Shown: positions 16,746 through 54,000, counted from the stretch's first letter. The stretch: DNA of 64,000 bases from Trichoplax sp. H2 (GCA_003344405.1 NOWV01000019.1:744001-808000), one strand, 5' to 3'. A program made the numbers and translations. The notes: generated by a model from the letters alone, not told the origin.

Positions 16746-18775
16746 ATATATGGATAATCTCATTACAATTAATTATATTATTTATGCAGCACACATAGCC
16801 TGTTCGACAATTTACTTCATGTATCACCTTGAATATGATACGTTGGAAAAATTTACTAAGAGAAAGAACACACATCAAACGCTCGATATATAATATCGTT
16901 GATGCTAACATAAGAAAAGTATTGCTTATGTAAAACTGGATAAGATAGTAATTCTCCGAATAATTTACAGTCCGCGAGGATATACGATAGTTTATATTTA
17001 GGTCATATAATTGATATTTTTTCAAATGTAACAGTGACCACTAGTAACCGCCCTAATTTTAGGCCTGTCAATGATGTAGAGTATGTTAATAACAATACCT
17101 CTACCGATTATGGTTGGCACAACTATGTACATATGTGGTATTTCAAATCGTATAGCTGGCAATAAATCAAGTTTATATTAATAATAAAAACTATGCAATA
17201 AAGATATGCACGGAAGTGAGCTCGATTATGTAGTATAATCGCGGTTAACCAAGTTCTTGACAAACGGATAAATTTAAAGTCTAATTAATTGACAAAATTA
17301 TCGTCCATAGATAATCAGTAGTACGCCACTGTATTTTGATAGCGTCTTAAGTTTAGGTCTATAATAAAGGATTTTTAACATGTAGTAAAGTGAAGATAGA
17401 CACGTCGGGATTAACTTCAGAAATCCTATTAAATTGTACTTTAAAGCACCTTAAAAAATATGTAATACTCCATCATCGTAGATACATCATTTTTGGCCCA
17501 CTAGCGACTACCTGAGAAAGGAATATTCGGCACTATTTTGCAAAATATAGCATTGTGCATTTTTCCTTTGAATACATAAAATTATGTCTGAATATGCTCA
17601 ACAAAACACTCCGGTAGTTTTTTCACAATTATTTAGCGATCTCACTACGAAACTAATAAAACAGATAAATGGCTTTAATATATACTGCCTAACGGGCCAA
17701 ATTATAGATGATCCGAAGATAGCATAAGTTAAATTGGATAAATATATGCAATGAATTTTAAAGTTCATTGATTTAGTTTTACCTTTGCAATATCTTTCTG
17801 ATCGAAGCAATTGCACGGAAAGATTTTATTATGGATATTGGTTTGCGTGCAATTACAAATTATTGCCCTAACTGATTAAATTAGCTAGCTAGGATCTATT
17901 CCAGTACTCTATTACTGTTTAGGTGACTCTATTTTCATGATTGCTACTTCAAGCAATCAAACAAGGTACTAGTATTATTAAACATTACTAACAGTCGGCA
18001 AAACTATAAATACAATTATTAATACGTCTATTACTCTAATTGAAGTTATATTTGCCAACAAATTATTTGGCAGTGAATTCTTGCTTACAAAGGATAAAGT
18101 GCATTAGTTGAAGTCTAGCTAAGGATTTGAATTAATTAAAATTAGTTTATGGAAGAAATCATTTGCCCTAAATCATTTATTAAGTATACAAAATGCTGTA
18201 ATTACAGGACAACTACACCGTTGTTACTGCACACCATATATCAGTATATCTTTAAACCATATCTAACATAATCAATAAATTGGAGTATTCATTTGATGAT
18301 AATAGATATTTCATAATAATTATAATGATAATAATTATAGTATTCTTATAAATGGGCAACCGCACTGCAATTTATATTTATCCATGATTTGTACGCTAAT
18401 ACTACTACTTATCTTAAATCATACAAGCTAATATTACTTTAGGTAAATTAGCTAATTATAATTATTGTTGTAAAGTGGTTTCACATTATTCTAACGTTAA
18501 TAATTATAATTTCACCAGAAATTAAATACATAAAATCTATAATTAGCGCCCATAATTAACAAACTTGTTAAAATGATCTTCTACGGAGTAAAATAAAGGG
18601 AATTTAGGTTATAACACTGTGGCAACAGACATTATTTCAGACAAGACTTTATCTAGTTAAAGACATCAAATGTTTAGGTAGCATAAGTAACACTTTATTT
18701 TTAGTAAGTAAATAAAGGTAGCTATAATATTTAACAAATGCAGTAAAGTTTTTGTCTTTCTTTGGACTAAATATA

Positions 18776-21048: not shown

Positions 21049-24000
21049 CTATAAACGTGAAAGTCAGTTTTTAATTCGAAGTTATATTTACTGTATATAG
21101 CCTAACAAATTTAAATTAAGGTGATATCTATCGCCCTACTTTAGTGAGGCTTAAGTAGATTATTATAATTTAACTAGCAGTCTACCACAGACTAATGAAT
21201 AAATTAATTAACGGCCATTCTAACTTCAGGCGGGTTATTTCATAGATTTGTATGACTTATTTGTGATCGTATCAATCAGATGCATTATACTAATTGCAAC
21301 AGTTAAACTTATTTAAAAATGTAAATTCGATAAATTTAGAAATGATAATAGTTTACTTTTCACCGTATGACAGTTTTTGGCAATATCTATTTTTTTTAAT
21401 GTGAATAATTTTATTCTAATAATGTAGCACTTAAAAGCCTAGGAAAAACTACTATTCTGGAGGTACCTAGATATAAAGGGTCTGGAAAATAAATACTTTG
21501 TTAACAAGTGAATTTCAAATTCAAAATTGTTTAATACATTTCATAGTTAAGCAATACCATAAAAATGAAGGAAAAATTTCAATGCTATCAAATCCAATTT
21601 AATTCTAACAACACTAATTCAAACCCCAACTGTTAATGCATTTAATGAGGGAATAACTCGCTTAAAACGGTACTTAAATAGACAAGAAATGCAATAAACC
21701 TCAACTTAGACCTTGTTATTGTCTTTCAATTAGTCGAATACCCACTGCCTGTCCAAATCTAAAGAAACTACGGTAATTAATATCTCTGTAATTTACTTAA
21801 AGCTTTATACAATTTTCTACCCAAATTTAGAACAAAGTATCAAATCTATTGATTTTGATGTTGCATTTAGAACCGCATCCTGGGAATACAAAAGTAGAAG
21901 AATATAGTAGCTTCGTGAATTTTTAGAAGAAATAACCTCTACTACTGAGATATAAAAAACAGGAAATAAATACTCTAAATTATCACTTCTTGATATTTTC
22001 TCGTCACTCAGGACTTAAAAAGGTGAAAAATAATGTTAGCAACTACTTCATGGAAATCATTTTATTTTAAATTACTGATTTAGCATTTGCATTACTGTAC
22101 AGGTAAATTAAATAGTATTTGAGCCGACCTTATCTATGTGATGAAAGGCAGTTAAAGATGATTTCGCCAGGCGCTTCTTAATTCTAGATTCGATTTCAAC
22201 ACCTTCAAGATATTAAATATTATTTAAAATAAAGCATTTAGAGCATTAGCCATTAAAATGAACGTATGATTTGTGGACTATCTTAGCCTAGAGCTAGCTA
22301 TTAAATCCAAAATTATTTAAATTTGATCGTAATCAACTTACTATGCCATTCTTGATAGCGTTCATTATGCTCAATTCGTTCACCACAACTCCAACAATAT
22401 CTCATAGGTAAAAAACAGCAACCCAATATCTTAAACCAATTATTTGCCGTATTGATAAAAGTTGTTGTAAATATAGTATACAAGATAGGATTGATACAAG
22501 AATTAAGTGGTAAGGAGAGAATAGCAATAAATGGTAAACTGTGAGTATCCAACCCTAGGCCAAATCCAGCCCGAAGTAGAACCACATACAACGGTAGCCA
22601 ACAAATGAGATCCGTTATTACAATGGTGATCATTTTAGCTCGAATAATCCTATCAGTTGTAGACATTGGACGTTGAGCTTTCTGGCGAGCCTTTGCTAGA
22701 GCAATAATAATTACAATATACATCACTGCTATTAACATCCAGACAAGTAGGGTAATGGCACAATATGATATTATCCACATCAAAAGGTAACTGTTTTCAA
22801 TATTTCCTGGTATACACGCACTATTAGTTCCATGTAAGCGCAGTGTTTTAGGTTGGTTAATGCCATTAATCACTGGGAATCCTATGTAGATTGCTGAAAT
22901 TAACCATAGCAAAATCAAAATGGTAAGTATTACAGGATAGGATATACGTTTATCTGAGAAAGGATAGATTAAGTACAAATATCTATCTAGAGTTACGAAA
23001 AATAAAATAAATGTTGACATTAGACTTGATAGCGCAATTAGAAAAGACGCTGTTAAACATGCCCAACTACGCTGCCAAAGTTCGAGATTTTCAGAATAAC
23101 GACCGGCATAATAAATATTAGCCGATGCAATAATAATTAAGTAACATCCCATCATTAGATCAGCAATAGATAAATTAATTAAAAAAGTCTTCACAGTGCG
23201 TAGATCTTTAGAAATATCAATTGAGTGCCATATAATTGAAATAGTATTTCCGATGATTGATATTGTCCCAATAGCCCAGATAAATATACGTAATGCATCA
23301 TGCGATAATATGCTTGAACATGTTGACAAATTGAGTTGGTCAGGGAGTGGATTGCATCGCTTAGCCACTGGAGGTGCGATACAACATAAATAATCACGAG
23401 TAGAATACCTACGTAAAATGCGCAAAGTGTTTTGAATTACTGCAAAATTGCTCTAAGAAATATTTTAGTAAATATTTGATTTTAAATATCCTACAATTAT
23501 GACATTAACAGCAAGGCGTAAAATATACAGATACGTGACTTTTTAAAATATTAGATAACTTATCATGTACACGAATCTTAAATGAATTAGTCCATGCATG
23601 GCTTTTGCATTGAAATTTAGCAGCGGATTATTTTCCAAATGCCTACACAGGAAATTAATAATATTTTCCAAACGCTACCACAATTTTAACGAACTTCGAT
23701 AATATATCTTAACTTAAACTCAACTAAATCCTTATATAATTAATTTTTCATTCTCTATGTGATTTATATACCGCAATTTTTAATACATATTAACTTGAAA
23801 TCAAATTTCAAGCTTTCAATAGCTATATTCAAATTTAAGGGACACTCATACATAACTACGGGGAGCGTAGTGGCTTTTGGTTGACTTCAACGATTCATAA
23901 TTTTTAAGTTATCTTTTCTAACAAAACAATTTTTGAAGTTAATAACTACTATTTTACCGCAACAAAACGAATTAGCGAAGGAAAAATGTACTTTATGTGT

Positions 24001-33000: not shown

Positions 33001-36000
33001 CACATAAATCGAAGTATTGTTCCATTGCACAAACCATCAGGTATCCGAAAGATAGAATTTCTTGATACATTTCTAAAATTGTTAATAGTTTATTTCACAT
33101 TACCATATAACTACCGTATTCATAAAGCACTGCCTTGCAAGTAAGATGACCATGACTTTTTTAAATAACTGTCACATAGTAATAGAGGATATTAATTTAT
33201 TTTTTAAATGAGTAATTAAGCTTTGATTCCCTCGAAAGAAATCAAAGTAGCTTAGAATTAAAAACTTACAGATAATCTAAATTAGCACATTTATCAAAAA
33301 ACCCTTCGTCTATTGTAGATATTCGATTATTGTATAGTTCCCTAAGTATTGAAGAAAAGAGCTTGCTTTAGTTACAAATAAAGGCAATAACTGTGGTAGA
33401 AAAAACTTCCAGTAGACCAATTTGAAAGTACGCATTGGTAAATATACCCATATTCTATTATTTTATAATTATTAGCTTAGCTATTGACTTCAAATCTGTA
33501 AATTAACATGAACATAAATGGGTACGCAATAGTATCTCCATATCATTGATTTTATATCTAGTTTAGAGTATTTTATAATAAAGAATGTGAAATTCGAATA
33601 GTCAATACTAACAGTTTCCAAAGTGCAATTTTATTCTGCTGGCGAGAATTTTTCAATTTAGTGATGTAGTTAAAATTAGCAGATCTATTTATTCCGAACA
33701 AATATCAGAATTCAATCAAAAAATTACAAGGTGCACAAGTTAAATATTTAGTAATTCAATTTAATAATAAGAATACGTCTGTAAGCCAATTAATTATCCA
33801 GCAATGGTATTAAAAATTTTTGGCAATGATTTTGTTACAACATTTAAAGCTATTATGTTAATGTTTTGTTTAATGAGCCAAAATAAGTAAAATTGCATTT
33901 GTAGAAAAGCTTCAAGCACCAATACCCACAATATTATAGTTTTCGTTGAATTATGAAATACGCCTATGTCTATTTCCGACAATCCATTAATTGATAAATT
34001 TCTAGAATAACGCAAAGAATAATTACAGATATTAATAATACACTTTGATCAATTCTAGTTTTTAATCAATACACGTGCAGTATTTATGTACAGGATACGC
34101 CTCTCAATTGCTCTTGGCGCAAGTCATGCACTACTATCTATAAAATAAAGAGATCACAACGATATATCGAATTCTAATTTCAGATATATCAAGATCAAGC
34201 CTATTTTATGATCATTTTCCCGAATTTCCACCTCGCTAAGACCATAGTAATCATTATATGTATGAAAACCGCTAACTGAATTCACGAAATTATTATACCA
34301 AATTTTTATAGTGATTAATTTAATAACAACTTCGGTGTTTCATGTTACTTCTGGTACCGTATTTGACAAATCTGAAATTGCCAATTTATTTTTAAACTGC
34401 TTCAGCAAAGATGAATAAAATTTGCAAAATAATGACTTACAGTACTCTTAGATGCAGAAAATCATTGAATAATCCAACATGGATATCTCTTATTAGGTTA
34501 TTCCGCATTTCTCTAAATTCAGATAAAGCAGTAAAAAGAGTCCTTCTGTAAATGTTTCAGCACGTTTTTTCTTACGAAATTAATCTGTATTAATTACCTT
34601 CTAAACACTACTGGGGCATTATTATGATCAAACTACAGGCAACTTCACCTATTTCTTTATTGGTTTATATACAGCGCCCACATTTTATATCTATTTTTAC
34701 AATTTCTCTTACTTATGTGATTACTTCCGACCTTTTTTTATTACTTGTAATTGTAAAAGACAAATACACTTACAGCCGAAGCACTTTCCGAAATCCGATC
34801 AATTGCGAAGGCTTTAACTCTCGAAAACTTGATTTTAGACAATATCTAGTCATTAACAAAATAGTCTTTCAAAGGCAATTTCCTTAATAACTCTTGGTCG
34901 ACTAATTGAAGTCATATTTATAAGATAAGCTTTCAATTAATTAGTATTTAGGACGATTACTAAATATATTACAGCGATTTAATTCTGGAAAGATTAAAAA
35001 ACCGAAGATAATCTGGACTCAAATTATTGCCATTAAGTATCCTATATAAATTAAAATTTTAAATATAATCAAATTAGAGATTGAACCCCGACCATGTTAT
35101 TATGCGTGAAGAAATATTAGCACTGAAATGTCTTCTTGAATACAAGTACGTTTCATAAATGCAATGTCATTGCCTTTTGTACTGTAAATCTATCTGTATA
35201 AAACATACAAATGTTCTAAATTTCTAAGTTTCGGCAGAGTAGAATTTTGCTCCTTCAATATAATCTTTTCTAGCTGATTCCATCCTAAATGCCTAAAACG
35301 ATTATAATCAATATTTATAAATATATTATCATCGCAGTTCAATCTGCCTGCAAATTTATATGTTACAACACAAAAGGGATCCTTTAGATCCAGCCATAGC
35401 TAGATATTGTTTGTAGCAATAATAAGCTATTTATTATGCTACTGCTAAGCAATGCTATACTTTTCTTAAAGGCTCATAAGCAGCACTGAAATCGAACAGA
35501 ATACTTTTAGTTCTTTCAAGAGTTTTGAAATTCTGTCATTTATTACATTTTCTTTAAATAATGAGAAGTAGCATTGTAACAAAACTTAGAATTGTGATTG
35601 TAGACTTTTAGCTATGTTAGTAAGATGTACGGAAACGTAACTTTCTATATTTATCTTGAGATGTATTTGGGAGTTCGCTACTATGGACTGTAATGGTAGA
35701 TTCTATGCTATAGTACAGATGATTATATATAGTAAGATGTTGAGTTACTATTAAGGCTAGAGGTAAAAATAGAGCCGTAATTCATATATTAGGATATGCT
35801 TAGTTTACCGTACTTCAACTGCTAAGAATAATATCTGCGAAAATACTGTAGTTGTTTCCATATCGGATTAATGATGGTCCGCTGTAAAATATTGTCACGA
35901 ATAATAAATTGACTATGCGTAAATTAAGGTAGAATGTTACATGCTGATTGTGGTAGTAGCTGCTACGAAATGAATAAATATAAGCTGGCAACTTCAGACT

Positions 36001-39000
36001 ATTCAGTTCGTTTTTTCTAGAAGTCCTTAAATCGTTGTATTCGACTAGAGTAGAGCCGTGTGTAGCTAGTCTTCGTCTTAGATCTTATAAAGTTCTTATT
36101 TTCTACAATTTTAAAATTTTCGCGACTGGATTTTATCACAGATATTCAATAGAATGATTGATTCAATGAAATTTCCAAGATAATCTCAGTCTTACAACTT
36201 TAAATATTTATTTAATTGTGACGTATTTTTACAAAACATTTGACGACGATACTAGAATCGGTTGTTCATTAAAATATTGTACAGTCAATTAGCTTAGTAA
36301 ATCAAGAATGAGCAGTGGTAAGATTAACTTAGCAAAATTCTTGTTATAATAATGCTAGCATGTAAAGCTGCCATCGATTGCTTAGCACATAGTTAATTTT
36401 GAATAGTGTGGAAGATTAATATATGTTAGGTACAAATTGCTGAGAGATGTAAAATGTTAAAGATATAAATTGTCATCAGGTAATAAATTGACCGCTGTTG
36501 TCACCCGTAGTATGAAATGCCCAGTATATTGACTGAAGTCTTGTTTGTACTTAACGAGGGTGCTAAATTGCGTTAAAGTAGTTGACTGGTATTGCGTTTA
36601 TGTTTGATTAATACACTTTTAATATTAGGCAAAAATTTTTCAATAAAGTTAATTTCAACTACTTGCTGTTCTTCAAATTATGATACTAGTTATCTATGAC
36701 AAACTCACAATAATTTTAGCGAAGGCGCTATGGCAAAATCATTCAAACTAACTGTTGTCAATTCATTACCATCCAGGAAGCTACATACAATTAAAAAAAA
36801 AACAGTTTATTAATTTGGCGACAAATACCTATTAATAATGGAAAGTCTGTCTATTAACTAGCATGGCAAGTTTTATTCTGTAACATATTAAATCTGAGGC
36901 AATTTCATCTCTTCTCTTGATGCTATATGTGAACTATGCTCGTGAATGCATTTATGTGAATACTAGTATAAAGAAAAACTTAAGTCAGATAAAGTTGAGG
37001 TAAATGCCGAATTTTTTATCTAATACCGCAGTATATTGATATACATTATGATGATCTTCTAGGAAAGAGAAGTTAATAACAATTCGTTTAAAATCTTACA
37101 TGATTAGCAAAAGATAATTTAATGTATTATCAATTGAACTCTAACGGTTACTATATTGTGCAAGATTTAAGATTATAGCCTAAATGATATTAATACAGGA
37201 AATATCAGGCCTTATAAATCAGCCTTGAAACTAATTACATTCTCTCTAATCGTATTAAGCCAGCAAATGTGTTCGTATTGACAGATAGTAATCGATTGCT
37301 GCTTAGATATCTGTTAGAAAAATGATTTAAAGGTATATCAGCATACGATGTAATTTATTAATACTATAAATTCAAATCAGAAATGACTGGGTCAATAGAT
37401 TTTAGTTGGAGTGGACTTACAAATATTTCAGACTGGATAACGTCCAGAAAGAATAATCTTCAATGGCTTCAATTACATTAAATGTTAAATTTCTATTAGA
37501 AGAAGAAATAAAAATCGGTTTCTGCAATATTTTTCTGCATTATTTACAGAAACAAATTGAACCTTCTTTAGTAATAATAACAATTGGAACATTATTTCTA
37601 TGCAGTATCTATTGTTATAACGATTAAGCCAAGATAATTAATTATGCTATCAGATATCTTGATCACAATGCAGGAGCTTTTTATTAAATTACTGAATTCT
37701 AACCCTAACCCTAACTCCTTGGCGCTATTACTTTTAGAAACCATCTGCTTAGCATTTCACTATTGATGTTAGCTAAAATTTATTAGGCTATAACTAGAAT
37801 ATTATAGAACTCAAAATACTGAATTTCATAGAACAGTTTAAACTCGGTGTTACAAAAATCTCTGCAAAAGAGTATTCTAGCGGTGTACTTTTTAGCTTAA
37901 ATTCGAATGAATCAACAGAAATTGGGGTTATAGGAAATAAAGATGCATGGATATCAACTAGTGGCCTCTTTAGAGACAAAATTCTGTAATTGAAAATATT
38001 CCGGTCAAAATTTCTCTTTAAATCGTAGCTTTACGATATAGTTACTATCACACTCCAAATTGCTCATACATAGGAACTGTTACAGATTTTTGCGTAAATT
38101 TTTAAACAATCGCACGACTTTGGTACTTGCAAAGACTATTACAAAATGTACTAATTCACACCAAATTTTTAATTATCAAATAAATAAAGTAAGCTTACAA
38201 ATTTTGCAATTGCCTTAGGCCATTGAATTGATTCACATTAATTTGATTCAGAAAATTTCCAGATAATAACCTAAAAATATTATATCATATTAATTTTAGG
38301 CACCACTGCTTAGACTTAACTTAAATGCAATTTATTATTTTAAACGAAGTTCTGATGTTACGATTGTTATCGAGGTTAACTTACAATGTCTGCAACTGCG
38401 GCATTGAAGCAAAGGCACTGTCTCCCAAGCTAATAATTTTATTATGCTCTAGTTGTCTTTATTGAATATTACAAATATTAAACGATATGCGCTTTTGCAC
38501 GGATATTGAATGAGGTTTATTCTTGTACAAAATATTAAAGAACTAGACAAGATTCACAAATTTTTGCAATTACGTAGCTATCATTAGACAACGCTTAAAC
38601 TTACAAATTTGCTAAGGAAGGCAATAAAGGAAAACTACTATTTTTGATAGTTGAGATATTGCCATTATTCATAAACCTGTAACGTAGGCCGTAATCGATG
38701 ATTCAGCAAAAGTGTGATAAAAGCCGCATTTTTTAATAAACTTCCTTTAAATAAAGATGCTTCAAATAAATATAGAATGCAAACATCATAGCAGCATTCT
38801 ACAATGTGATAGAAAGTAGGTGTAAGAAATAACAAAACTCCTCTTAAATGCCAGTAATTTACACCTCGAATTTTTAGAATCATCTACTAACCTTGGGTCC
38901 AATAAGATCGTATTAAAGCAACTAAGTTTAACTACGTCATTCCTAGATATTACATATCGGCTGGGTTGTATGTCAATTGGTAACGATCCATATAGTTCTG

Positions 39001-42000: not shown

Positions 42001-45000
42001 TGTTTCTTTATTAATTACTAATAGATATATTGTAGAACATACAGGGATTTTAGAGCCTGACTACAACCCAGTAACGATTGGAAATTAAAATCCTCGATCA
42101 TATTGTGATTGAGATACCTATATATAGTGAAATAGGTATCAGATTAATAAGAATACTGCTCGGTACATTTTAATTAAGGTATTTAAAGCTAAGATCCTGA
42201 CACCCAGCCCTTTACTCGCCGCAGTAACGGTATAAATCGTTGCTTTTATTGACATATTACTTATGGCATAAAAACATTTACGATAAGTCAAATACGACCA
42301 AGTTCAAAATATAATAACCGTAAAAACGTAAGAAATGCAACCACTTACTACAACAGAAAGTTGAATTCAAATTCGTGCTTGTCCTTTCTTTCAGATGTCA
42401 AAAATTAATCTACGTTCTTACGTACAGTATATTAACTTTTATACAATCATATTAGAGCTCTGCATATTTATACGCATTCACTACATTTTTATGAACGAGA
42501 GTAGTAGGTACTTTACATGATCAGAAAAAATGACTCAAGAATAACGTTATTACTATGAAACTAGCTTAACCTGCGGAGCATGCGTTACGAATGCGATTTA
42601 TGATAATTAAAAATATTAGTTAACATTTTACGCAGTACGGTTAAATCTGTCTTAATTCAGTCTGGTATAAAATTTAACTAAGATTCTGATACAGTGTTAT
42701 ATACTGTATTAGAGTAGATATATCTATTTTAGGATAATTTTGCTAGCCTATCCTTATTTAGTTAACCTCTAATTTGGATATGCTGTGTTTTAATATAGCA
42801 CTGGCTTTGAGTGACAGTGACACATGTATACATATGCTGACATTAATAGTTATATTAGGGAATGCCAATTATATACTTACAGTTCCAATCATTGTGATTG
42901 TAACTTACTTATGATAGATTGTAAATTATCGTGGAAATGTTCCTTGATAGGACATATCATAATCTTACTATTATGTATTAGTCATCAGATGTCTATGTTC
43001 TTAAATACTGTTGTCTGTATTAGGGACCAGTAGCTAAAATTAATGTCTAATTCAGTGAATAATTTCAAAGTCAATCGTACTAACTATGACTCACGAACTA
43101 TTGAGGAAAAGTATATTTACTTAATATATCGTGTAATAAAGTTAATTCTTAAACTTAGTGTTCAACGTAAAATACGAGGCATCTACGTCTTGGTGTAGTC
43201 TACTAGTAGAGCAAAAGTGTTCCTGATAGTACTGATATCGTTCCTAGATATGTGGTTCAAGGAATTGACTTATTGATCGTATATTACGTTATCTTGTTGC
43301 AAAGCTGTTTTGAAACAGATACTTTTGCTTAAATTTAGTAAAATATTCCGTTCCTACCAATAAACTATGCCGCAGTATTATACGCACGCAGGAATATATT
43401 GAAAATTAAAATTACTGGATCTTATTTCCCTTAACTATGTATTACTCAGCTAAAATTTGTCAACTTTAACTCTTAAAATTTCTAGATGTCCGGTCATATT
43501 GTAACCATGACCAATAATCATATTCATTATTGATATTTATTTTTTATCTTATTTACTTACAAATGCTGTAGCCAACTAGCATTACGACAAATTTCAGCTT
43601 CGATTGTTTCTAATCGATTCCTACTTAAACTTCTAAATATTTAAATATTGTGTTAACATTCATAGAATGATTTTAAAAAAGTCCTAGTTATTAGAATAAT
43701 GGTATTATTTCGGCTATTGAAATGTAATCATAGGTGTAATATTGCAGAGCAGTTGATCTGGAATTTACAATTTTCGAAGCGGAAATACTGTATATTCGTA
43801 AACGTGTACGTATTTTACACAAACACATTAATTTATATTAAATGGCTAACGGGAACATTTTCAAAGTAGAAGCTACTCTGCTTCAATTTGCAAACAGTTA
43901 TTAATCACTGAATTATTATATAAAGAATTTATCCATGAAATAATCTCAAATCAACATAAACAGATCTCGAATTACAAATCATATTCCTGGTAAGAATTTT
44001 ACATCACTGCATGTACGAGTATTCAAAAACCACAGATAAAGAAATTTCTCTAGAAATAAATTATAATTTTATCTTACAATGCCAATAAGTAGAAATCAGA
44101 AAAGGCTCCGTCCGCAATATGGCTCAATCTATTGTTCTCTAAATTCCTGCTCAAAGAGAAAAATTACACAAGGAGATGGCTCACCCAAGAAAAGATCTTG
44201 TTAGAAAGGAATTCATTTACTTTGAAACTTACCGACCGTAAAATATAGTAAATGCATTTTATAACATATTTATTAGGCGAATATCTATAGTTCTGATTAA
44301 CTAATTATTTTTAGATTATTCTTATGTTAAATTAGCAAACTAAATATTTACTGGAATATTGCATTTATATTCATTTTTACTCATAAAAATGCAGAATGCC
44401 TATCAGTTTTATATACATTTGAAGGGAGTTGTAGTCTAGAAAAAATATACGCAGAGAATAACTACTATAATATTATAAGTGTTAATTTTAGTTTTGAGAT
44501 TCAGCATAATAAATTTTATCCTAACAAAAAATCATGAATATATATATTATTTTAACTCAAATCATGCAGTGTTTGACTGAAAAATCGCGATCTCGCTACC
44601 GAACCTAAATTCTGTCTCAAATTGAGTTAACCTATACTCTATTTGCCTGAAATCGAACTGTATTCCGCGAAATTTCCACGGGTTTCACCAGTAAATATTA
44701 TTAGCATAGACCAATTCAAAATTAAAGTATGAATGGTGTTAAGGATTACTAAAATTGTTGGATTTAGTAGAAATTGTATTACTTTTTCAGAAATATAAAC
44801 GAAAGTCTGGTCGCTTTATCTTTACTACGTTTCAGAGATTCTTTATTTTGCCTTTATTCTTCTTATTTTTGCTCATTTTATAGTAAGTTCATGAAAATGA
44901 AATTGCATTTTGTTGATGCTACGGTTAAATTATGACTTTTACTATGGTTGGGTTCGAGAATCTAAATTGCAATGTAAGCTGATGAGATTAATTAATAACG

Positions 45001-48000
45001 GGATTATTTTTCGAGTACTTCATTGGCATTACATATGTCACAGTTACAAACATAAATTGGATATAGATTATAGTTTACAGCAATCTTTTTTGCACTTATT
45101 AGAAATAAAAACCCCTACTTAAGCAATTTTTATTTGTAATAAAGTAAATCCTATGATATAATGACTTAATAGTAATATGCTTCTAGTAGCTATCGAAATT
45201 ATGAAATCTATCTAGGGCTCTTAATCTAAATAAACTCATGAATGGATTATTTTTTACTTACAAAGTCAGTGTATGTTAACATAATCGTAAGAGCTATAAT
45301 AAAAATATGCTGATAGCGTAGTAAAAATGGCTATAACAACAGATGCGATACACAACCGTATGTGAGGTAATAATAGCATGAAATGTGAGAGTTAAATTAA
45401 ATTGTGTTGTATATCTATGTGTGTACTTTGCACAGATTCTGGTCTCTCTACTGAAAGCTAGGCAAGTAGTATTGCGGATTAAGGTACAGTTTATCATAAG
45501 TAATGTGTTGCTCCATGTATCATAACGGTAGTTGTAGCAAAATACCTAAATTTATAACGTTTCTAATAGCTCTACGTAAAGTTTCGATTTATGTTACAAT
45601 TTTTTGTGATAATTAAAATTTAGGGAGATAAGAAATCTAGCGAGAGAAATGCTTGCAAGACCTCTCATTGATTAATCGACTTTTTCTTTTGTTGCCAGCT
45701 TGATTGATTGATTGATTGATAATATCAGAAAATTTTGCTGCTCAGACTGTAATTCTTTAGTATTGAACAAGAGGTCACTTTTATAGTTTGGTTACTTACT
45801 GATAAGTTTATAAATTTTCTATTGAATTACTTTTAAAATAACTAACCTAATTTAATTTATTCCCGATTCCTTTGGGATTACAGTAACATTATATCTAAAT
45901 GCATTCAAAACCCTAACTTGCATCGTCTTTCTTAAATATTTTTACTTACAGATATTTTAACGATATTAGGCCGCTGAAAGTTTGATTTGTAACGATTCGC
46001 AATCTGTTTGTACCCAGATTTCTGTAAATTATTCAATAAATATTTAATAATTACCAACTGATAATTAATTAAACAATAAAAAACATAATAAATGATTTGA
46101 TGTGACACATAAATTTAGAGACTTGAAAATAATTCGATTTTAGCCTGTCTTTATCTCTACAGCAATTTCAATGTAGCGTTACTAAATACTATTTATTTAT
46201 TGAATTAAGGATTTATCAGAGTCATAATCCAAAATTAGACTGATACATTACAAATTATTTAAAGAAGCAAGTTCTCGAAAGGCTCCGTTGCAAATTCTTT
46301 CGATTTCTCCAAACGTAATCCAACTGTAATAATAATAAATATGAATTGCGTTAAACAGATTAATGATGATCCACAGTAGTCTTTGACAATTATGAAAGAT
46401 TCTTAATTATAATTATTCGTTCCGGTATTGGGGCCTATAAAAATAATGTAATCTCCTATTGTATATCAAAAAATTTTAATTATATTGTATTAGAGTATTC
46501 ATCTTCAATTTGTAAATCACTGTATTGCTGTTACTATATTAACTGAAAATATTGGAATTGCAAATTGGTATTCATTATTTGCTTGCAGTTCTTTGCAAAT
46601 ACTAATCTAAAACTGAAAAGCATATATTATAGTAGGGATATGCAATCACCTATCTAGTTAATTATTCGATCCATTTCTGGTTAAAATAGCACAAATTTGT
46701 TATTATACTACATTATATCTACTGTACTCTTTCTCTCTAACTTATCGTGGCTAATTCAATCCTGGAAAAGTTTCTTAAAAATATGTAATGAGTGCTGATA
46801 TACTTACAGAATTTCTAATTTTGGTAGTCGAGATAATACTCTACAATCCAAGTAAGAAAAATACCCCTTGGACAAGTCCCTAAAATTATATAATATCTTA
46901 GTTATAACGATTCATAACGTTTTCGATATCTTAGCAAGTAGCTAGATTAAATCTTAATTATTCATCTTAATAAGCTAGATCAATTAAACGTCTTTAGGCA
47001 TGAAAAATATTAGCAGATCGAACAAATTTAGCAAATGTTCGTAATCTCATACTAGACCATTGTGTTCAAAGTTCACAGTTACGAGTAGCTCTAACTTGCA
47101 ACAAAGATTGAGAGAGTGATTTCTACCCTTTACTACTGTCATTTGGAATACTAAGCAATCGGTATTCCAAGGCAAATAGGATTTAACATAGGGAGACCTT
47201 CAAGACTTACTAGAAAATGACAATCTAATTTATTGTCGGCGAACTGGCCATTTATATAGGTTTCGGACCTAAAACTAGTTTAGCTACACAAGTCACTTCG
47301 TCTATTAGAAATTGACCAACTTAATACCCTAAAGAGATTCTATCTGTACAGATTAGATACAGTCTTATCCTATTAAATTACTGAAACAGTATTAAAATAA
47401 TCAATGCTTATCGATAGTTTAACATATAAAGCTATCCTACTAAGACATTTCCTCTTAACTTAGGAATTGTAGTTTGAACCTTAACAACTTGGAGGTGACA
47501 GATATAATCTAGATTAGACGGTTGGCAATTACTATTTCAGTCTATGTAATCCTAAATTAAGGATATCAACTGTTAATCGCTAAAATTGCAATTAAAAGGA
47601 GACCATGAAACAATTTTAAAATATAACATATAAAGAACGGAACATAGAAATAAAGCATACGTCACGAAGATTACTATCGTGACAAGTATATAAAAAATTG
47701 CACGTATGAAGCGACATGGAATTCGAACGATACTTACAGTAGTTTGAGATCTGCTAAATCATGGAACGCTGTCAATTTAAGTTTTATATTTCCGGTAGCC
47801 TTAATGTATCTGATAAAAAGGATTGAAAACGATTTAAATACATTATATTGTAGACTTTATTGTTTGGTTGTATGAAGACATTCAGTTGATCTTCAATTTA
47901 ATTCATCATCATTGTAATTACACGAGATGAATTCGTGGCACTTCCATTAGAAAATTCGAAGGAATCACTTGAATCGGATTATCCGTGCAGACGCTACAAC

Positions 48001-51000
48001 AATAAATTAGTGGCTCAATTTTATAAATATGATAATGAATGTACAAAGCCGTTAGTAATATAACGTTATAATTATAGGTATTACGTATTTTTTTAGGACT
48101 GCTACAATATACAATTATAATTACAATAAGTTTGGAACACTTTAAATAACTGCAATGTAACAGTTTCCTGATTTTTAACTACCTTTAACTACTGCTACAT
48201 AAGAGTTAGTACGTTTTATATGAGGCTGTGATACGAAATTTAGGTAATCTAACTGCAATATGAGGTGATATTATGAAGAATTTTCTCATAAGCCATCTCA
48301 GATGCTGCGACGGAGTGCAGACTTCGAGAGTTCATCGTCGCTTTAGTGTGTTTAATTAAGATTTTTATTTGTAATTGATAATCTTTTATTAGTTGTCGAT
48401 AACCCATATTTATTAGGTACTCGCTAATTGTAATTTTATCAGTAGTTTGATCATACTGGCTGTCAACTCTGTGCAGAATAGTGTATTTACAGACAAGACA
48501 AATATTATTCACGTTGTGCTGAGCCTCTGATTGTTGATGGGCTCTTAATTAGTTCGTAGCCCATTAGTGTTGTTTACGCCGTTTGCCATACTAAACCTTA
48601 TGAACGGTCGGCTATAGAAATCTATGTATTTTTAAGGACTATTTATCTAATTTGTGCACCGGGTATGGCCGAGCTAGGGAAGTAAAGCCCGGTATTCTCA
48701 TTAGCTAGTCAGTTGACGCTTGGTCGTTTAGTTTGATTAGTCTTGCATGTCAAGACTACCTTCGCCGAATAAACTATATTTAAAAAGGGCCTAAGTCTAG
48801 TCTACGTCTAACCCGTTAGGAGGAAATTTGGCTGTTGTAGCCTTAGTACTGACGCACATTTAGAAACCCAGGTTTCCTTGCAGTGAATTGAATACGGCAG
48901 ATGCTATAATGATTTGCATAGAGTAAACTTTGTTAGTGGGCTGTGGCTGATGATGAAATGGTGAAGAATCTAAGTCGGCTTAAAACTGTACGATCTTTAA
49001 ACTAAGAATCTGACGTAGTAACTGAGATATTATTGCAGCTTCATTCATTTATAATGGATGAGTACCGTGATTATCGTAATTTTATGAAGTAGCAGCCAAA
49101 ATCTAAGTTCTTTGAGATTATGATTTATCTCAGACTGACTATTACACGAGTAAGTAGAATTTAACAAAAACATGTTAACAATTTCAGTCCTCAGCAGCGG
49201 ATTACGATCAAACTATTGAAATAAAAGTAATATTTTAATATTAATTCATCTTATCTCATTAAATTTTACTTTCTAATGATGTTGTAATTCGAAATTTAGT
49301 GCAGTATTGTAAACATAATTAGATGTTAGACTTGTATCTATTCTTGTACAAGCTGCTACATCATTCCGGTTATTAATGCCGAAATAACTTAATTCAGATG
49401 ATCAATTAATGTTCGTCACTGGCAAAAGTATAAGTTCGATAGAAGACTACTTGAGTATAATCAATTTTTCTAGCGGTATAACACATGAGCAAAGGCGTCT
49501 AAATTTAAATCTTTGTGAAAAGTTAGAAATATTGGATCCCAAAAGCTTTAAAAACCCAGAAAATTTGTATTTCCCGGCCCTGTTAAGAAACTCTATCGAA
49601 TATTATTAAAGCAGTCATTTTTAGGTACATAAATTACTTCAACACCATCATCACATCTAATTTTATGCTGGGAGAAGAGCGATTAAGAAATTTTAAACGT
49701 TGAAATTGAGTACACAAAAAATTCCTTTTTTGAGACAGGATAATTGTTGATGAAATAGAATATATGATAATTAGACTTTAGCCACAAGCATTAGCAAACG
49801 AATTTCCCACAAGGAAAGACTTATACGCTATTGTTATTAATTGAAAAAGCTCACTAAGATAGCTGCGTCTTACTACAGTTACTTATCAAGTCTTTTTACA
49901 TTCCAACTTTGACTTGAAGTCCTTCTGTTAAAATATTGCTAGTAGATCCCACCGTAACCTGATTTGAGCAAAACTAATTTTTCATCTGAAGAGATATTTA
50001 ACATATTTTAATCCCTGATCGTTAAATCTCGTTGTATCGTTAATTATTAGTACTAGTCAATTACCCATTCAAATTAATGGGAACGAATACTACGCAAAAT
50101 GTAACTCTGAAACAAAATAATCAGAGCTATATTATCATACTAGGATGAATCCCTTCTTAATATGAGATCTTAATAAGAGATAAGTAGCTAATAATTGAAT
50201 GATGCATCAATTTGATAGAAAAATATATTATAACATTTCTTGTTTGTTTTGTATTTATCTACGAAAAAGATTCTTACTAAACTTCATATTGATATTGGAT
50301 AATAAATAGAGTGGTGAATTGGAAGAGGTATTTTTTTATCAGCATATTGAAGCCCTTGTTGCAGTATTTCATTATAATAAGGGTAATTTCTAATCCCAAG
50401 ACACGTCGCGGTAGATGTATTCATGAGATTCTAGGCAATGAAGTAGTTTATAAAAGATCGCTTTATCCCATCGTACCGAAGCATTTCCAACCAATTAAAA
50501 TTAAAACTCTGACATAATAAAAGTATTTCTTACTGGATGACCTATTTAAATTTCGCTTTTCAAGGTAATTTTATCTGAGCAGTGAAAAATTATAGGTCAT
50601 GAAGCTAAAAATTCTTATGTTTATTCTCAAGGATTTAATCTACCAAAATTGTAAAACCAGCGTAATCTTTACTTGGCTATTGAACTTGACTCGTCATATA
50701 TATCTATTTTTAAAATAATTCATAACTTTGCAATACAAGTAAAACATAAAATGTATACGAATCTTACAGAATTTTCAGCTTTTTTAAACCATGAAAGATT
50801 ATAGGATGAACGGAATGGATCCTATTAGACTGAAAGTATCTATAATTTCATGAAAAGGATTACAAATATTTGGAAGCAATAAATGTAAGACACTCAAATA
50901 AATACAGAATATCATCGCAGCTTTAACATAACCAGAATATGCGTATAACCTGGCTATTTGTAAATTCATAAGTGGATCTATTCAAACTTACAAAAAGTCT

Positions 51001-54000
51001 AAATTTTTTAATGATGAAAATGTATTGTTTTGTATTTCTCGTAGCAACATATTTGAAAAATCCCTGATTAAATTAAGGAAACGCCAATCAAAGTAAGATA
51101 TTTTTTTCTATAATATTCAGTGTTATTATTTGTCATTAAAGAGCAAACTTGCAATTCCTTTATTTATTAGATCAAAATTTTTACGATCATGAACATGATT
51201 TCATTGGCATAATACTAGTATAATGTAAAATTTCATCTTACAAAATCTTCAAATTAGTCAAAGATTTGAATGTATCTGGATGCAGGTATCGGACATAATT
51301 GTGCTGGATAAGTCTATAATGATTCCGAAAAACTACATTAAATGGAGAATCTAAAAAATTTTTTATTTAGTGCTACTTCTACTATGTATTGCATTTCACA
51401 CTTGGCAGATTAATGCTAAGATTAACATCTACTATAATTAATTAGCTAAAGTATAGTATATTACTCTCAAATTAACGAACATCATGACCGCTTTAGTAAT
51501 TTATATCACGATTCAAAGTTTAATCAACTCGTTATCAAAAAAGTAGACAAATTATAGTGTTACAGATAGAGCAAGTTTCCTAGTGGAGCGAATGCATTTT
51601 TCGGAATGTGATATATATTATTATAAACTAGAGCCCTATGTAAGTCAAAATAACAAAGAGTATCAATAATTAATTGATTTTATAAACGCAGAATATTCCT
51701 TTATTGAGTTTCTGATTATAAAATTTAATATATTATCCTACAAGAGTCGCAAATTTTCTAATCCAGCGAAGGCATCTTCTTCGACGACTGTAATTATATT
51801 GGTAGTCAGGTCTCTAAAAGTTTTTAAGCAGCCATATTTTTTTATTAATAAAATCTGCATAAACAAAATATTAAACATCTAGGTATTAAGAATACTATTT
51901 ATGATCAACCAGCTCTTCTAGACATAAGCTTAGTTTGCAAATACATATTTATCTACCGTAAATGAAATTGTTGAGTACATGCGATAGAAACTTGAGTATC
52001 AAGCGAAGTCTTTCGAACTTACAAGTATTCTAAGTTTCTTAAATTTTTAAAAGTATTGTTGCGAACAATTGTCAAATGGTTTTGCCTAATTAGCCTTTTA
52101 AAGGACGCAAATTATAAAATTTTTTCAATTAACTACATTTCCCCAAAATAGTGCAAATATCCTTATATAAAATATCCGTTATTTCATCTTCTTATCCATA
52201 ACAATACTTACAAAGCATGCAAATTAGGGAGATTTCTCAATATTTTCGACGAAATTTTCTCACTAGTAATATCATTATTACTCAACTCTCTTTAGGCAAA
52301 TGGCAAAAATTTCACAAACATAGAAGATAAAAATTAACAAAATTTAAATTTTTAACAGTTATCAGGAAGTGGGACTTTCGACTTGTCATAATCAGAAACT
52401 TATGCACTAGGAATTGCTATTAAAGTTAATACATTTTTATTGCAGTATATAGTATACAAATATATTTAAAGCTGTCTCTGCGAATGTCGATACTTTATCC
52501 AATTTAAATGCAATAAATGTTATGTATTTGAATGTTATGTTTGATTAGATTGAAAGTAGAAATAATTTCTTTGGAGAAGGTATTCAAAATAAGATATTCG
52601 TCAATTAATTTCGATACAGTTTCTAAGATACAAGCTCATGCAAACCGGTTTAGTATCAGATTCTACATGTGCTGTATCATAGTTTAAAAAACCCATTGTA
52701 GAGCACATTTAGTTGCCCCTGATCAGAAAATGAAGATTCCATAGTAGATTATAGATGAATATATTCATATATTATAGGGTGTTGAGGTAGTATTGATCTT
52801 CAATATAAAAATATGTACTTAACTGATATGTTAAATTATGAATAATTCATTATACTACTGTAGCTCGTCGGGAAAGGTAATATATTTATGTTGCTAAAAA
52901 TTATAATTTGATTACATGTGAGATTGGATGCAATATTGCCAAACTTAGTGTAGCTAGATAATTCAGTGATTCTTTCTAACGTCTTTCCAGTAGTTTTATT
53001 CAGCTATATAGAGCTACTTTTAGTATATTTAGTGCAGTAATTAAACAAAATTTTAATTTACTAAAAGACTTTTTGAAATTTCATGATCAATATTTTCATA
53101 ACTCATTGTAACTGAACATATTGAGTTTCGACTATTGTAGTATATTTACTTGCGCATAAATTCTAAGAGGTAATAGGTAAGTCATTTGCCTAATAGCATT
53201 GTCCTGATACTTTATAACTCGCTGTAATTCATTTGTCGTAATCTTAATTATGAGAAGGTCATTGCTATCGCTGGTATTTATAATACATTGTTAGTATGCC
53301 ATTAGCATTGGTTAACTGTATATCAGCTGAGTAAAAGCAATAAAGGTTTAGATAATCACTCCAGCTTTACTGAATTCGTCTAAAGATTTCTAGCTAATTT
53401 TTCTTCTTACAAAGTAGAAGATTTTCGAAAATGTGGTAATTACATATATAGCTTCAGGACTTTTTGATCATCGATGAAATCATAACTCCTTGTTATTTAT
53501 ATCAGCAACTTGCTACTATCCATAGCCTCACATTGACGAAAGTTATAGAATTTCGTTAATATAACACTGCTGTAATACTATCAGTAAGTTCTAGCTATGT
53601 CACTATTGAATGATACTAGACTTAATTCCTGTATATTGTGGCAAAATCTGAATTGAATTGCATTCAAACAATTATTGGTATGCGCATTTGTAATATTCCA
53701 AGTTGAATTTTTTCATTTGAGAATTTGAAGTATTTCTCAAGATTACAAAATTCTTTTCTAAATTACTTCATTCTGACTATTAAGAACAGTATATTTTATT
53801 TACCATTACTAAGTTATCTAACTATTCACGTAAGGTTAAGAAGCTACAGTTAGCCGCTGCTATATCTAATTAGCAAGTAATAATGACCTATTTATGTCTT
53901 TGATCTAAGAGCGCACAGTCATATAGTAAATATGAACTACCGGAAAGATGCATCGTTGAGGTTAAATTATGTTACTAAGAATGTGTCATTGCTTACTGGT

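Follow-up and report, generated by a model that had tools for sequence, protein, structure and literature searches.

The window analysed here, a 64,000-nt stretch of the Trichoplax sp. H2 genome (NOWV01000019.1:744001-808000), carries on its minus strand a long series of exons running from 58118 to about 20063, all of which probably belong to a single gene and a single transcription unit. The gene model spans at least 38 kb and comprises at least 57 exons, for a receptor of at least 1907 residues; these 57 exons provide 1907 open codons (each exon having been picked for openness). What the locus shows directly is the exon anatomy, the identity of the domains and their sequence along the DNA; from these we infer the joining of all exons into one mRNA. 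The encoded protein appears to be one G protein-coupled receptor (GPCR) with about 48-49 leucine-rich repeats (LRRs) outside the cell and a catalytically dead kinase domain inside. Its parts would follow one another in the order signal peptide, small Cys-rich module, LRR N-terminal cap (LRRNT), LRRs, hinge, seven-transmembrane (7TM) domain and pseudokinase. Public annotation of the locus is fragmentary: Trichoplax sp. H2 has a 5' model of 160 aa, T. adhaerens has pieces of 333 and 89 aa, and no full-length annotated protein was found.

At the 5' end, exon 1 (58046-58118) contains the start codon and the signal peptide (MMIKKIPAIAKFHLSLCIFLAYLC), with a hydrophobic segment at residues 6-24. Exon 2 (57790-57897) encodes a Cys-rich module. 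Its tail, CDCKWDCPNKYDELRC, is similar to the C-terminal half of LDLa repeats, a likeness judged by eye only, as Pfam gave no Ldl_recept_a match at E<=1 on P0162 (equivalent to exons 1-5). Exon 3 (55653-55736) is a linker (VDKIIDCPLWGPNGTLSSVLSKAPERNS) with a 100% tblastn match to the same P0162, a hypothetical protein of Trichoplax sp. H2 (160 aa). Exon 4 (54712-54820), identified by motif scan, encodes the LRR N-terminal cap (PCLKQCQCSDLRMNC...LPYST), in which the cysteine pattern C-x3-C-x-C-x6-C is followed by L..F..V.LP; the Pfam LRRNT match on P0162 is weak (E 0.03, below the cut-off). Exon 5 (54383-54454), found by protein match, is the first LRR exon, with 72 nt and a GCAAGT donor. The spliced translation of exons 1-5 is identical to P0162 at 148 of 148 residues, and the public model reads through the donor of exon 5 and then stops, being truncated. 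The initial annotation had let the array start at 52289; it begins one exon further upstream, at 54454, and the gene itself at 58118. That earlier reading had missed the signal peptide, the Cys-rich exon and the LRRNT, as well as the C-terminal kinase-fold domain.

The LRR segment consists of 48 in-phase exons on the minus strand, from 54454 to 23571, which sum to 3543 nt or 1181 codons and would encode about 49 'typical' 24-residue LRRs. Thirty-nine of these exons are 72 nt long, five 75 nt, two 78 nt, one 69 nt and one 135 nt, the last holding two repeats. About 50 LRR exons had been noted on one strand of 23571-52289, and this is borne out, as 47 of the 48 lie there (38 of these 47 having 72 nt) and the controls described below are clean. 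Seven (one of 78 nt, then six of 72 nt) occupy 50768-52289, where Pfam LRR_8 matches five of the seven, and forty occupy 23571-47993 (32 of 72 nt, five of 75 nt, and one each of 69, 78 and 135 nt). Donors are GT in 46 of the 48 exons and GCAAGT in the other two. About 42 exons are solid, while six are weaker LRR matches (42117-42043, 39511-39437, 35041-34973, 30461-30387, 29257-29180 and 28236-28162).

These exons were found by a census of 72-nt stretches bounded by AG and GT or GC, in all frames, which gave 193 rows on the minus strand and 163 on the plus strand. Thirty-eight of the stretches, in 23571-52094, are open at offset 1 and LRR-like, and an LRR profile was built from them (and is circular for those 38). 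Counting repeats by profile search, as had been proposed, gave 40 matches of at least 10 bits, every one on the minus strand within 23571-52289, and the best score on the plus strand or outside this interval is 8.5 bits. Nine irregular exons came from an in-phase search of AG..GT exons of other lengths, and 54454-54383 was added by protein match. Every LRR exon begins at codon base 3 and ends after codon base 2. The expectation of one LRR per symmetric exon therefore stands as regards phase (phase-2 introns on both sides throughout), but not for the 135-nt exon with its two repeats nor, in full, for the nine irregular exons, whose symmetry is partly by construction since the search was limited to in-phase exons. 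Small one-LRR exons with a constant intron phase are a feature of vertebrate glycoprotein-hormone receptor genes.

As controls, we counted the 72-nt AG..GT stretches that are open at offset 1: the plus strand as a whole has 26 and the minus strand, outside the model, 29, against 37 (GT donors) within the model. When peptides from single exons were compared to Pfam LRR_8, 15 of the 48 LRR exons and none of the 55 control pseudo-exons of equal shape were matched; each match (E 5e-4 to 0.1) falls under the gathering score, as expected because only one repeat is present. The consensus over 39 units is L1 x L3 x x N6 x [IL]8 x x [IL]11 x x x x F16 x x L19 x x L22; position 6 is Asn in 32 of these units.

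Repeat arrays are readily mis-assembled, and the window contains four 20-N gaps, all of them outside the array. It is nevertheless very improbable that mis-assembly, or a very recent tandem blow-up of a single LRR exon, accounts for the array in place of a stable long ectodomain. Pairwise identity between repeats averages only 38% at the nucleotide level (28% after shuffling, maximum 58%) and 19.5% at the amino-acid level, exon offsets show no periodicity, and the introns share no long direct repeats except one dispersed element, all of which argues against recent duplication or mis-assembly. Moreover, independent runs gave contigs that are colinear with the locus over parts of its length (X4/X5 over 49754-55386; X3 and X1 elsewhere, at 100% identity). 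Judged by their divergence, the LRR repeats are old and distinct.

Several features link these exons to one another. Each of the 48 LRR exons has NT as its last two bases, with which a Leu, Ile or Val codon begins (19 of 55 among controls), and in genomic order the junction codon is L, I or V at all 47 LRR-LRR junctions. When the 48 exons were shuffled 100,000 times, only 11 orders gave this result, and on average about 40 of the 47 junctions did. Eleven exons have C or T as their first base, and each of them comes after an exon with CT or AT at its end; this also holds for the pair flanking a 2.77-kb intron. The array has exactly one signal peptide and one LRRNT on its 5' side and exactly one hinge and one 7TM domain on its 3' side; a transmembrane scan of the model protein finds the signal peptide and seven segments, with none between. 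The caps, the constant phase and the permutation test of junction codons support, at the level of sequence, the presence of all LRRs and the 7TM domain on one polypeptide, and the exons likewise fit a single receptor of the LGR type, its ectodomain having about 1280 residues and about 49 LRRs.

The weak point of the one-gene reading is the intron at 50767-47994 on the minus strand, a possible split point of the array and the longest of the 56 introns (2774 nt, median 253.5 nt). Within it we found no in-phase exon, no tRNA and no Rfam family, and comparison with 13 relatives yielded nothing significant (every E>0.1). The locus might thus hold two units: 58118-50768 would be the gene of a small secreted protein with signal peptide, LRRNT, eight LRRs and, in the gap, a last exon that escaped recognition, and a second gene, for an LGR of about 40 LRRs, would begin in 50767-47994. 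We consider this unlikely. A weak candidate first exon for the second unit does exist at 50372-50278 (MKYCNKGFNMLIKKYLFQFTTLFIIQYQYEV), with a moderately hydrophobic start, a GTAAGA donor and the right phase, but it would give Tyr rather than L/I/V at the split codon and contains no Cys cluster; the downstream unit would lack a Cys-rich N-cap. Exon 47993-47922 (VCTDNPIQVIPSNF...), which is absent from every annotated protein of 80-2000 aa, and the three following repeats, which lack the Asn, resemble the start of an LRR domain, where such repeats are common. However, VCTDNPIQVIPSNF has an ordinary LRR score (17.4 bits) and keeps the register LKKLKI-L-VCTDNPI, and similar irregular stretches occur within single paralogue proteins (P0025, P0036). 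Although an acceptor at 49209 would place a stop six codons past exon 50768, and none of the annotated proteins spans the gap, the upstream unit would lack a C-cap, a transmembrane segment or any other ending. Finally, exon 50839-50768 has a GTAAGA donor and ends in an unfinished Leu codon (CT), which the first base of exon 47993 completes to Leu.

Transcript data touch both sides of this intron. X1 and X3 (RNA library) contigs match exactly the LRRNT exon 54712-54820 within longer records, and X3 RNA contigs stop precisely at the exon 5' ends (acceptors) 46021 and 41641; these records indicate that the array is transcribed on either side of the long intron. Splice evidence amounts to three acceptors and one donor, with no CT..AC joints among the matches listed, and no transcript bridging the whole array was seen in the runs compared (mostly genomic-like contigs).

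Even in a single gene, the mature receptor could contain fewer LRRs, some of the 48 being either cassettes that are skipped in frame or decayed pseudo-exons, with typical isoforms of perhaps 30-45 repeats, which we regard as possible, though not probable. Skipping any LRR exon would keep the frame since all are symmetric, the six weak LRR matches and the two GC donors might mark such exons, and intron sequence kept beside two exons in RNA contigs shows slow or incomplete splicing. On the other hand, all 48 exons are open, with the same Leu/Ile/Val ending, and the neighbour-dependent junction codons indicate that adjacent exons are as a rule spliced together; a joint that skips an exon did not appear, at a coverage too thin to show one.

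Downstream of the array, the last LRR exon (23642-23571) sits 162 nt upstream of the exon encoding the hinge (YSTRDYLCC...C...STC) and a rhodopsin-type 7TM domain (22342-23408, minus strand), whose acceptor was picked from the spacing in paralogues. This exon matches Pfam 7tm_1 with 86.5 bits (E 2.6e-24, cut-off 30.5) and shows seven hydrophobic segments and the DRY, CWxP and NPxxY motifs. The order and spacing of LRRs, hinge and 7TM domain match those of P0001, P0016 and P0164, each a single annotated protein. That no other 7TM exon lies among the LRR exons is confirmed: tblastn of eight 7TM relatives matched only 22.3-23.4 kb and a paralogue at 3-203, in agreement with the transmembrane scan.

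Four C-terminal exons, found by tblastn of the T. adhaerens model P0026 in 20063-22202 on the minus strand, encode a linker and a kinase-fold domain (22202-22129, 21048-20816, 20659-20461 and 20293-20063); the model stops short of the last exon and the stop codon. P0026 is 86-94% identical over these four exons and, together with a GTAAGT donor at 22342, supports their junction to the 7TM exon; the same junction is present in four independent public models of paralogues or orthologues (P0001, P0002, P0026 and P0164). The tail aligns with the kinase-fold tails of paralogues. Compared to PDB sequences, the tail profile gave 46 matches at E<=10, 44 of which are protein kinases, the best being IRE1 (E 0.0047), where IVHG.. 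aligns with IVHRN and L..F[ST] with SDFG. For paralogue P0002, the neighbours listed in the ESM Atlas are all kinase clusters (features 0.95-0.97, structure TM 0.52-0.57); an AlphaFold model of a tail-bearing paralogue is poor (pLDDT 40) and unusable. By these comparisons the C-terminal domain is a protein-kinase fold. In four aligned tails, HRD is replaced by HG[NSGF], the loop Asn by A and DFG by [EKN]F[ST], while all four keep the beta3 Lys and alphaC Glu (K161 and E174 of A1). As the HRD Asp, the catalytic-loop Asn and the DFG Asp are lost, the tail is predicted to be a pseudokinase. We found no LGR with a pseudokinase tail in the literature, and the word 'kinase' does not occur in the text of a review of Trichoplax LGRs (PMC9545775).

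The window also contains, outside this gene, the 3' part of a neighbouring paralogue of the same architecture (3-3110, plus strand, found by tblastn of P0002), comprising the end of a 7TM domain and a kinase-fold domain; its region 1978-2352 matches Pfam PK_Tyr_Ser-Thr with 24.1 bits (cut-off 23.1).

Annotated paralogues combine long LRR runs, hinge and 7TM domain in single models, several of them with a kinase-like tail. For example, P0164 (1129 aa) contains LRR_8, 7tm_1 and a sub-threshold PK_Tyr_Ser-Thr match, and P0001 has LRRs, 7TM domain and tail in 747 aa. The hinge of the present gene, YSTRDYLCC-x8-C...STC, has the same form as in eight placozoan-type relatives: S-T-R-[DE]-Y-L-C-C is common to P0001, P0002, P0016, P0018, P0020, P0028, P0036 and P0164, and P0025 has SQEYLCC. 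In Trichoplax adhaerens, 41 of 46 LGRs are placozoan-specific and combine a hinge of their own type with many LRRs (PMC9545775, Front Endocrinol 2022), and by the match of hinge type and LRR number the gene probably belongs to this expansion. The class-A 7TM domain, Cys hinge and unusually long LRR ectodomain are shared, but the example given in that review, Tadh-LGR-15, has 34 LRRs, for about 49 here. The view of an exceptionally long GPCR solenoid is thus upheld as to length (about 1280 residues), but less so as to novelty: annotated paralogues also have high counts (about 28 in P0028, at least 36 in P0036), and, set beside the published placozoan LGRs, this LRR number marks the far end of a type already described. 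In the protein library, relatives that reach 2000-2900 aa do so through CUB, LDLa, F5/8-C and lectin domains, and LRRs do not account for their size.

Bilaterian LGRs (type A, FSHR/LHR/TSHR; type B, LGR4-6; type C, RXFP1/2 and GRL101) similarly possess an N-cap, an LRR solenoid, a Cys hinge and a rhodopsin-type 7TM domain, with 7-9 LRRs in types A and C and 14-18 in type B (PMC9545775). The present receptor differs from them by its far higher LRR number (about 49), its different hinge, its kinase-fold tail and the lack of a Pfam-detectable LDLa. The closest named relative is a 'GRL101-like' protein of Trichoplax sp. H2 (61% identity over the 7TM exon), and relaxin receptors match the 7TM domain significantly (E ~1e-28). 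We nonetheless rejected assignment to type C (RXFP/GRL101-like), as Pfam detects no LDLa, the LRRs number about 49 instead of about 9-10, and 7TM identity to relaxin receptors is 26%.

Fusions of GPCRs with kinases (GPCR-TKL/K and GPCR-TK) are described in choanoflagellates, sponges, oomycetes and amoebozoans (eLife 2025, PMC12716839). They resemble the present protein, by architecture alone, in having a 7TM domain followed by a C-terminal kinase-fold domain in one polypeptide; here, in contrast, a huge LRR ectodomain precedes a 7TM domain of the LGR rhodopsin type, and the catalytic residues are missing from the kinase domain. Functional analogues, with no homology claimed, are plant LRR receptor kinases, the kinase-homology domain of receptor guanylyl cyclases and JAK JH2, the latter two being non-catalytic modules that regulate signalling: they too couple an extracellular recognition domain across the membrane to a kinase-fold module, but they cross the membrane once or never and none has a 7TM domain. 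Long runs of extracellular 'typical' 24-residue LRRs are also found in Drosophila chaoptin (about 41), Toll-like receptors (19-25) and Slit (four capped LRR blocks), none of which is a GPCR. Given a single N-cap and no internal Cys caps, the solenoid of the present receptor would be continuous (in which case it would not form a flat horseshoe) or broken only by irregular repeats.

If the one-gene reading is correct, a ligand would bind the long solenoid and act through the hinge on the 7TM domain, as in other LGRs; the 7TM domain, with its DRY, CWxP and NPxxY motifs intact, would signal via G proteins, and the pseudokinase tail may serve as a non-catalytic docking or regulatory module. Large ligands, microbial surfaces or partner cells are the putative targets that the initial annotation had proposed for such a solenoid. 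It is decidedly doubtful that everything holds jointly, namely one polypeptide with the longest LRR ectodomain of any GPCR (about 49 repeats) and a conserved pseudokinase tail, an LGR/receptor-kinase hybrid undescribed in animals outside sponges, skipping that grades its length, and large or variable targets in place of hormones. Should it do so, in-frame skipping among the 48 symmetric LRR exons could yield receptors with solenoids of graded length, and the candidate function of this subfamily would be the recognition of large or variable targets, such as microbes, prey or other placozoan cells, rather than hormones.

The window is AT-rich eukaryotic DNA (28-38% GC) whose exons are short and bounded by AG and GT. 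Candidate LRR exons were collected as every 72-nt stretch flanked by AG and GT/GC in all frames, yielding 193 rows on the minus strand and 163 on the plus strand. Among the minus-strand stretches, 38, all within 23571-52094, are open from the second base and have the pattern x-L-x-x-N-x-[IL]-x-x-[IL]-x-x-x-x-F-x-x-L-x-x-L-x-x. A profile made from these 38 exons, which is circular for them and independent elsewhere, gave 40 matches of at least 10 bits when all six frames were scanned, each of them within 23571-52289 on the minus strand; the top score on the plus strand or outside this interval was 8.5 bits. A strict LxxLxLxxNxL scan of the six frames was uninformative (only 8 matches per strand), because the motif is interrupted by an intron, which falls within the codon for the second Leu of LxxLxLxxN. 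PMC11863921 contains no data on the phases of introns in LRRs. An in-phase search not restricted to 72 nt brought in nine irregular LRR exons, and a protein match added a further 72-nt exon at 54454-54383.

The final tally is 48 LRR exons (3543 nt, or 1181 codons), of which 39 are 72 nt long, five 75 nt, two 78 nt, one 69 nt and one 135 nt; some 42 of them are secure, the other six matching weakly. The initial annotation had proposed about 50 LRR exons at 23571..52289, each carrying a single repeat. This number is fair, and both other elements hold with one exception each: 47 of the 48 exons fall in the interval, but the one at 54454-54383 does not, and exons generally carry one LRR, but the 135-nt exon carries two. 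Three controls are independent of our self-built profile. First, 72-nt AG..GT stretches open at the same offset number 26 on the plus strand, 29 on the minus strand outside the model and 37 in the model. Second, Pfam LRR_8 matches 15 of the 48 single-exon LRR peptides, versus none of 55 control peptides. Third, all 48 exons end two bases into a codon for Leu, Ile or Val, versus 19 of 55 controls. The controls are clean. An artefact is very unlikely.

The 39 regular units follow the 'typical' 24-residue LRR consensus, with the Asn present in 32 of them. Compared pairwise, the exons share on average 38% of their nucleotides (28% when shuffled; maximum 58%) and 19.5% of the encoded residues. LRR exons show no periodic pattern with exon offset, and there is no long direct repeat except one intronic dispersed element. 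Low identity and the lack of periodicity and of long direct repeats together indicate that the array has been maintained for a long time, with no recent expansion: the LRR exons are old. The two copies of the dispersed element match over 246 nt (80% identity) and 94 nt (74% identity) and lie 20.4 kb apart, at 35697-36119 and 56093-56511, both in introns of the LGR gene. Three other stretches located in introns or adjoining the gene (42670-43336, 46672-48005 and 55343-55999) reach depths of 10^3 to 10^5 in contigs from sequencing runs X4 and X5 and show numerous joints and loose ends; these stretches are repeats of high copy number and probably transposable elements.

The Asn is missing from stretches at model residues ~343-415, 585-634, 778-846 and 1111-1210, which could be hinges in the predicted solenoid. 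A horseshoe of 49 typical repeats could not stay flat without colliding with itself, given the geometry of TLRs; by the same geometry, we infer that the ectodomain must be a superhelix or several arcs.

At the 5' end, a scan for Cys clusters revealed a canonical LRR N-terminal cap with four Cys (PCLKQCQCSDLRMNC...LPYST) at 54820-54712, and the stop-to-stop frame around this exon retrieved P0162, a Trichoplax sp. H2 hypothetical protein. Mapped back, P0162 defines five minus-strand exons, the translation of which is identical to it at 148 of 148 residues: exon 1 (58118-58046), with the initiator Met and the signal peptide; exon 2 (57897-57790), which is Cys-rich; exon 3 (55736-55653), a linker; exon 4 (54820-54712), the LRRNT cap; and exon 5 (54454-54383), the first LRR. 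This identity assigns the organism to the placozoan genus Trichoplax. No Pfam match to LDLa was obtained in exon 2. Its LDLa-like tail, CDCKWDCPNKYDELRC, is similar to the half of an LDLa repeat that binds calcium, and exon 2 may be a degenerate LDLa module, which would link the subfamily to type C LGRs. Contigs from run X1 and from the RNA library X3 match exactly 54712-54820 within longer records, the pattern expected of spliced mRNA. Two LRR exons on the minus strand, 54454-54383 and 27489-27418, have GCAAGT donors. The public 160-aa 5' model terminates shortly after the first LRR exon because it runs through the GCAAGT donor of this exon into the intron, and such read-through explains why the public annotation of the LGR locus is fragmentary.

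At the other end, the exon encoding hinge and 7TM begins 162 nt after the last LRR exon. It lies within a 379-codon open frame on the minus strand (22313-23452) matching the rhodopsin-family 7TM (Pfam 7tm_1, E 2.6e-24). Its acceptor, at 23408, was picked from spacing in paralogues, and its donor is GTAAGT at 22342. The best named relative of the 7TM is a Trichoplax sp. H2 'GRL101-like' protein (61% identity), and relaxin receptors and a sponge LGR4-like protein show distant but significant matches. Four C-terminal exons follow on the minus strand (22202-22129, 21048-20816, 20659-20461 and 20293-20063), with 86-94% identity to P0026, a T. adhaerens fragment model; the search downstream of 20063 located neither the final coding exon nor a stop codon. 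Joined by script, the 57 exons give 1907 open codons. The model protein has a signal peptide (residues 6-24), seven TM segments within residues 1347-1615 and none between, and 20 N-x-S/T sequons in its ectodomain. As the DRY, CWxP and NPxxY motifs are all present, its G-protein-coupling core looks intact. The initial annotation had seen no other 7TM exon among the repeats, and tblastn with eight 7TM-bearing relatives agrees, detecting no second one in the LGR gene.

Whether the array belongs to one gene or several hinges on the intron at 50767-47994, which at 2774 nt is the longest of the 56 (median 253.5 nt). Its length makes it suspect as a boundary between two genes, and a search for a start exon in the right phase in 47994-50767 and 52290-58000 returned a sole, weak candidate at 50372-50278 that might be an alternative first exon. 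Against two genes, there is a single pair of caps, with one signal peptide and N-cap at one end of the array and one hinge and 7TM at the other. Moreover, the exon preceding the intron has a good donor and ends on an incomplete Leu codon, and the exon following it keeps the LRR register (...LKKLKI-L-VCTDNPIQVIPSNF...). Junction codons provide a further argument. In genomic order, all 47 LRR-LRR junctions encode Leu, Ile or Val, a result reached by only 11 of 100,000 random exon orders (mean ~40), which supports the genomic order. It is so rare because, in the genomic order, each of the 23 exons with a terminal TT precedes an exon that opens with A or G, and each of the 11 exons that open with C or T comes after one with a terminal CT or AT. 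The pair across the long intron obeys this rule, but the alternative first exon would give Tyr. A split within this intron is therefore distinctly unlikely. The assignment of all repeats to one ectodomain in the initial annotation is favored by the single cap pair, with the length of this intron, the weak candidate first exon and the fragmentary public annotation as points against it.

Exon 47993-47922 was considered as a half N-cap opening a second gene. This reading was dropped as decisive evidence, as the exon is a regular LRR once the split-codon Leu is added, the real LRRNT sits at 54820-54712, and paralogues have similar internal stretches. A protein search with the open frame of this exon yielded no annotated protein of 80-2000 aa containing it. 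Inside the long intron, no in-phase exon was found, 13 relatives gave nothing under E 0.1 by tblastn and no 7TM relic, and tRNA and Rfam scans of the window, this intron included, returned no matches. The intron does contain, at 49063-49209 on the minus strand, a strong acceptor followed by a 49-codon open frame starting with FDRNPLL.... This frame is similar to the final LRR ahead of the hinge. Its phase does not allow it to follow exon 50768, and it may represent a decayed exon.

The data from runs X1, X3, X4 and X5 are contigs, mostly colinear with the genome. At 90% likeness, X4 and X5 cover 49.7-55.4 kb and little or none of much of 36.7-46.7 kb, the uncovered parts being uninformative. 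Records of X3 end precisely at the acceptors 46021 and 41641, which, with the cap exon, are the only splice hints. Skipping of some symmetric LRR exons in the usual mRNA is, in our view, somewhat unlikely. A single gene joining the whole array is the best-supported reading of the sequence and is probably correct.

Placozoans lack neurons and are very simply built, yet T. adhaerens has 46 LGRs according to the 2022 review PMC9545775. Of these, 41 are placozoan-specific, characterized by a hinge of their own and 'an unusually high number' of LRRs (34 in Tadh-LGR-15), and most of the 46 are orphan receptors of this lineage-specific type. The LGR gene shares the placozoan-specific hinge (YSTRDYLCC), and its nearest relatives are such proteins, which would place it in the placozoan-specific family. 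It is not a type C LGR, despite the 'GRL101-like' name of its relative, because an LDLa module is undetectable and LRRs are far too many. To our knowledge, no higher LRR count exists in the placozoan-specific family. Relatives of 2000-2900 aa were rejected as precedents, since they owe their length to CUB, LDLa, F5/8-C and lectin domains rather than to LRRs. The exceptional ectodomain length initially proposed is an extreme of a placozoan peculiarity already published rather than a new kind of feature. The function proposed along with it, binding of large ligands, microbial surfaces or partner cells, is a conjecture.

The window also carries, at 3-3110 on the plus strand, the 3' portion of a second, oppositely oriented LGR paralogue, comprising the 7TM end and a tail of kinase fold. 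In P0164 (1129 aa, incomplete at its N terminus), the public model of this paralogue, LRR_8, 7tm_1 and sub-threshold kinase matches occur in one protein, so that at least two subfamily members lie within 64 kb. Another gene lies between the two LGRs (9537-17200, plus strand), with charged coiled-coil-like exons such as ERRRALEAERQFKLEELRLKKLEK at 12428-12499. Low-complexity repeats at 6790-7526 and 62646-63631 have several frames open on both strands (peptides like TVQYSTVLYSTV) and are adjoined by four runs of 20 N, at 5478, 60918, 62168 and 63002; together, these features probably represent satellite-like DNA and scaffold gaps. Finally, an open frame on the plus strand (63591-63998) leaves the window end; it opens with a signal-peptide-like segment (MAMMKTIHWFKPLILLILVAYPAMC...) and is the beginning of an unrelated secreted-protein gene.

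Several lines of evidence point to a kinase fold in the tail. Pfam PK_Tyr_Ser-Thr matches exon 1978-2352 of the neighboring paralogue with 24.1 bits (cut-off 23.1), and sub-threshold kinase matches occur in the paralogues P0001, P0002 and P0164 and in two further proteins, P0155 and P0163. A profile built from the tails of three paralogues and three exons of the LGR gene gave 46 matches to PDB sequences at E<=10, 44 of them protein kinases; the best, IRE1 (E 0.0047), aligns over helix E and the catalytic loop up to the DFG strand. In the ESM Atlas, the P0002 tail falls with kinase clusters by features (0.95-0.97), and its predicted structure (TM 0.52-0.57) does so in all 10 matches listed. An AlphaFold2 model of P0155 from a 5-row alignment (pLDDT 40) was too poor for a fold search. 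In all four tails, HRD is replaced by HG[NSGF], the loop Asn by Ala and DFG by [EKN]F[ST], and the beta3 Lys and alphaC Glu are invariant. The tail is thus predicted to be a pseudokinase, which would have lost catalysis and retained the Lys-Glu pair. The 7TM-tail fusion is found in four public gene models (P0001, P0002, P0026 and P0164), and LRRs, 7TM and tail occur together in P0164. UniRef tags a 158-aa paralogue fragment as 'Protein kinase domain-containing': the fold has been flagged automatically before, apparently never, as far as we have seen, as part of an LGR. Literature searches, at the level of their listings, found no paper on a Trichoplax pseudokinase or a placozoan GPCR with a kinase domain, and the word 'kinase' is absent from the text of PMC9545775.

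The LGR locus is an annotation failure, as the 5' model halts at a GC-AG intron and the remainder is split or missing; LRR and domain-architecture counts drawn from current gene models of the family are therefore likely to be underestimates. With ~1180 LRR residues on 48 old, individually distinct and phase-compatible exons, the locus shows how far the placozoan LGR type can go. The most interesting addition to the LRR finding is the conserved pseudokinase tail. Animal GPCR-kinase fusions have been stated to occur in sponges alone (PMC12716839). Should the tail be confirmed in cDNA, this statement would need amending, and the placozoan family would offer a concrete example, open to testing, of a 7TM receptor linked to a pseudokinase.
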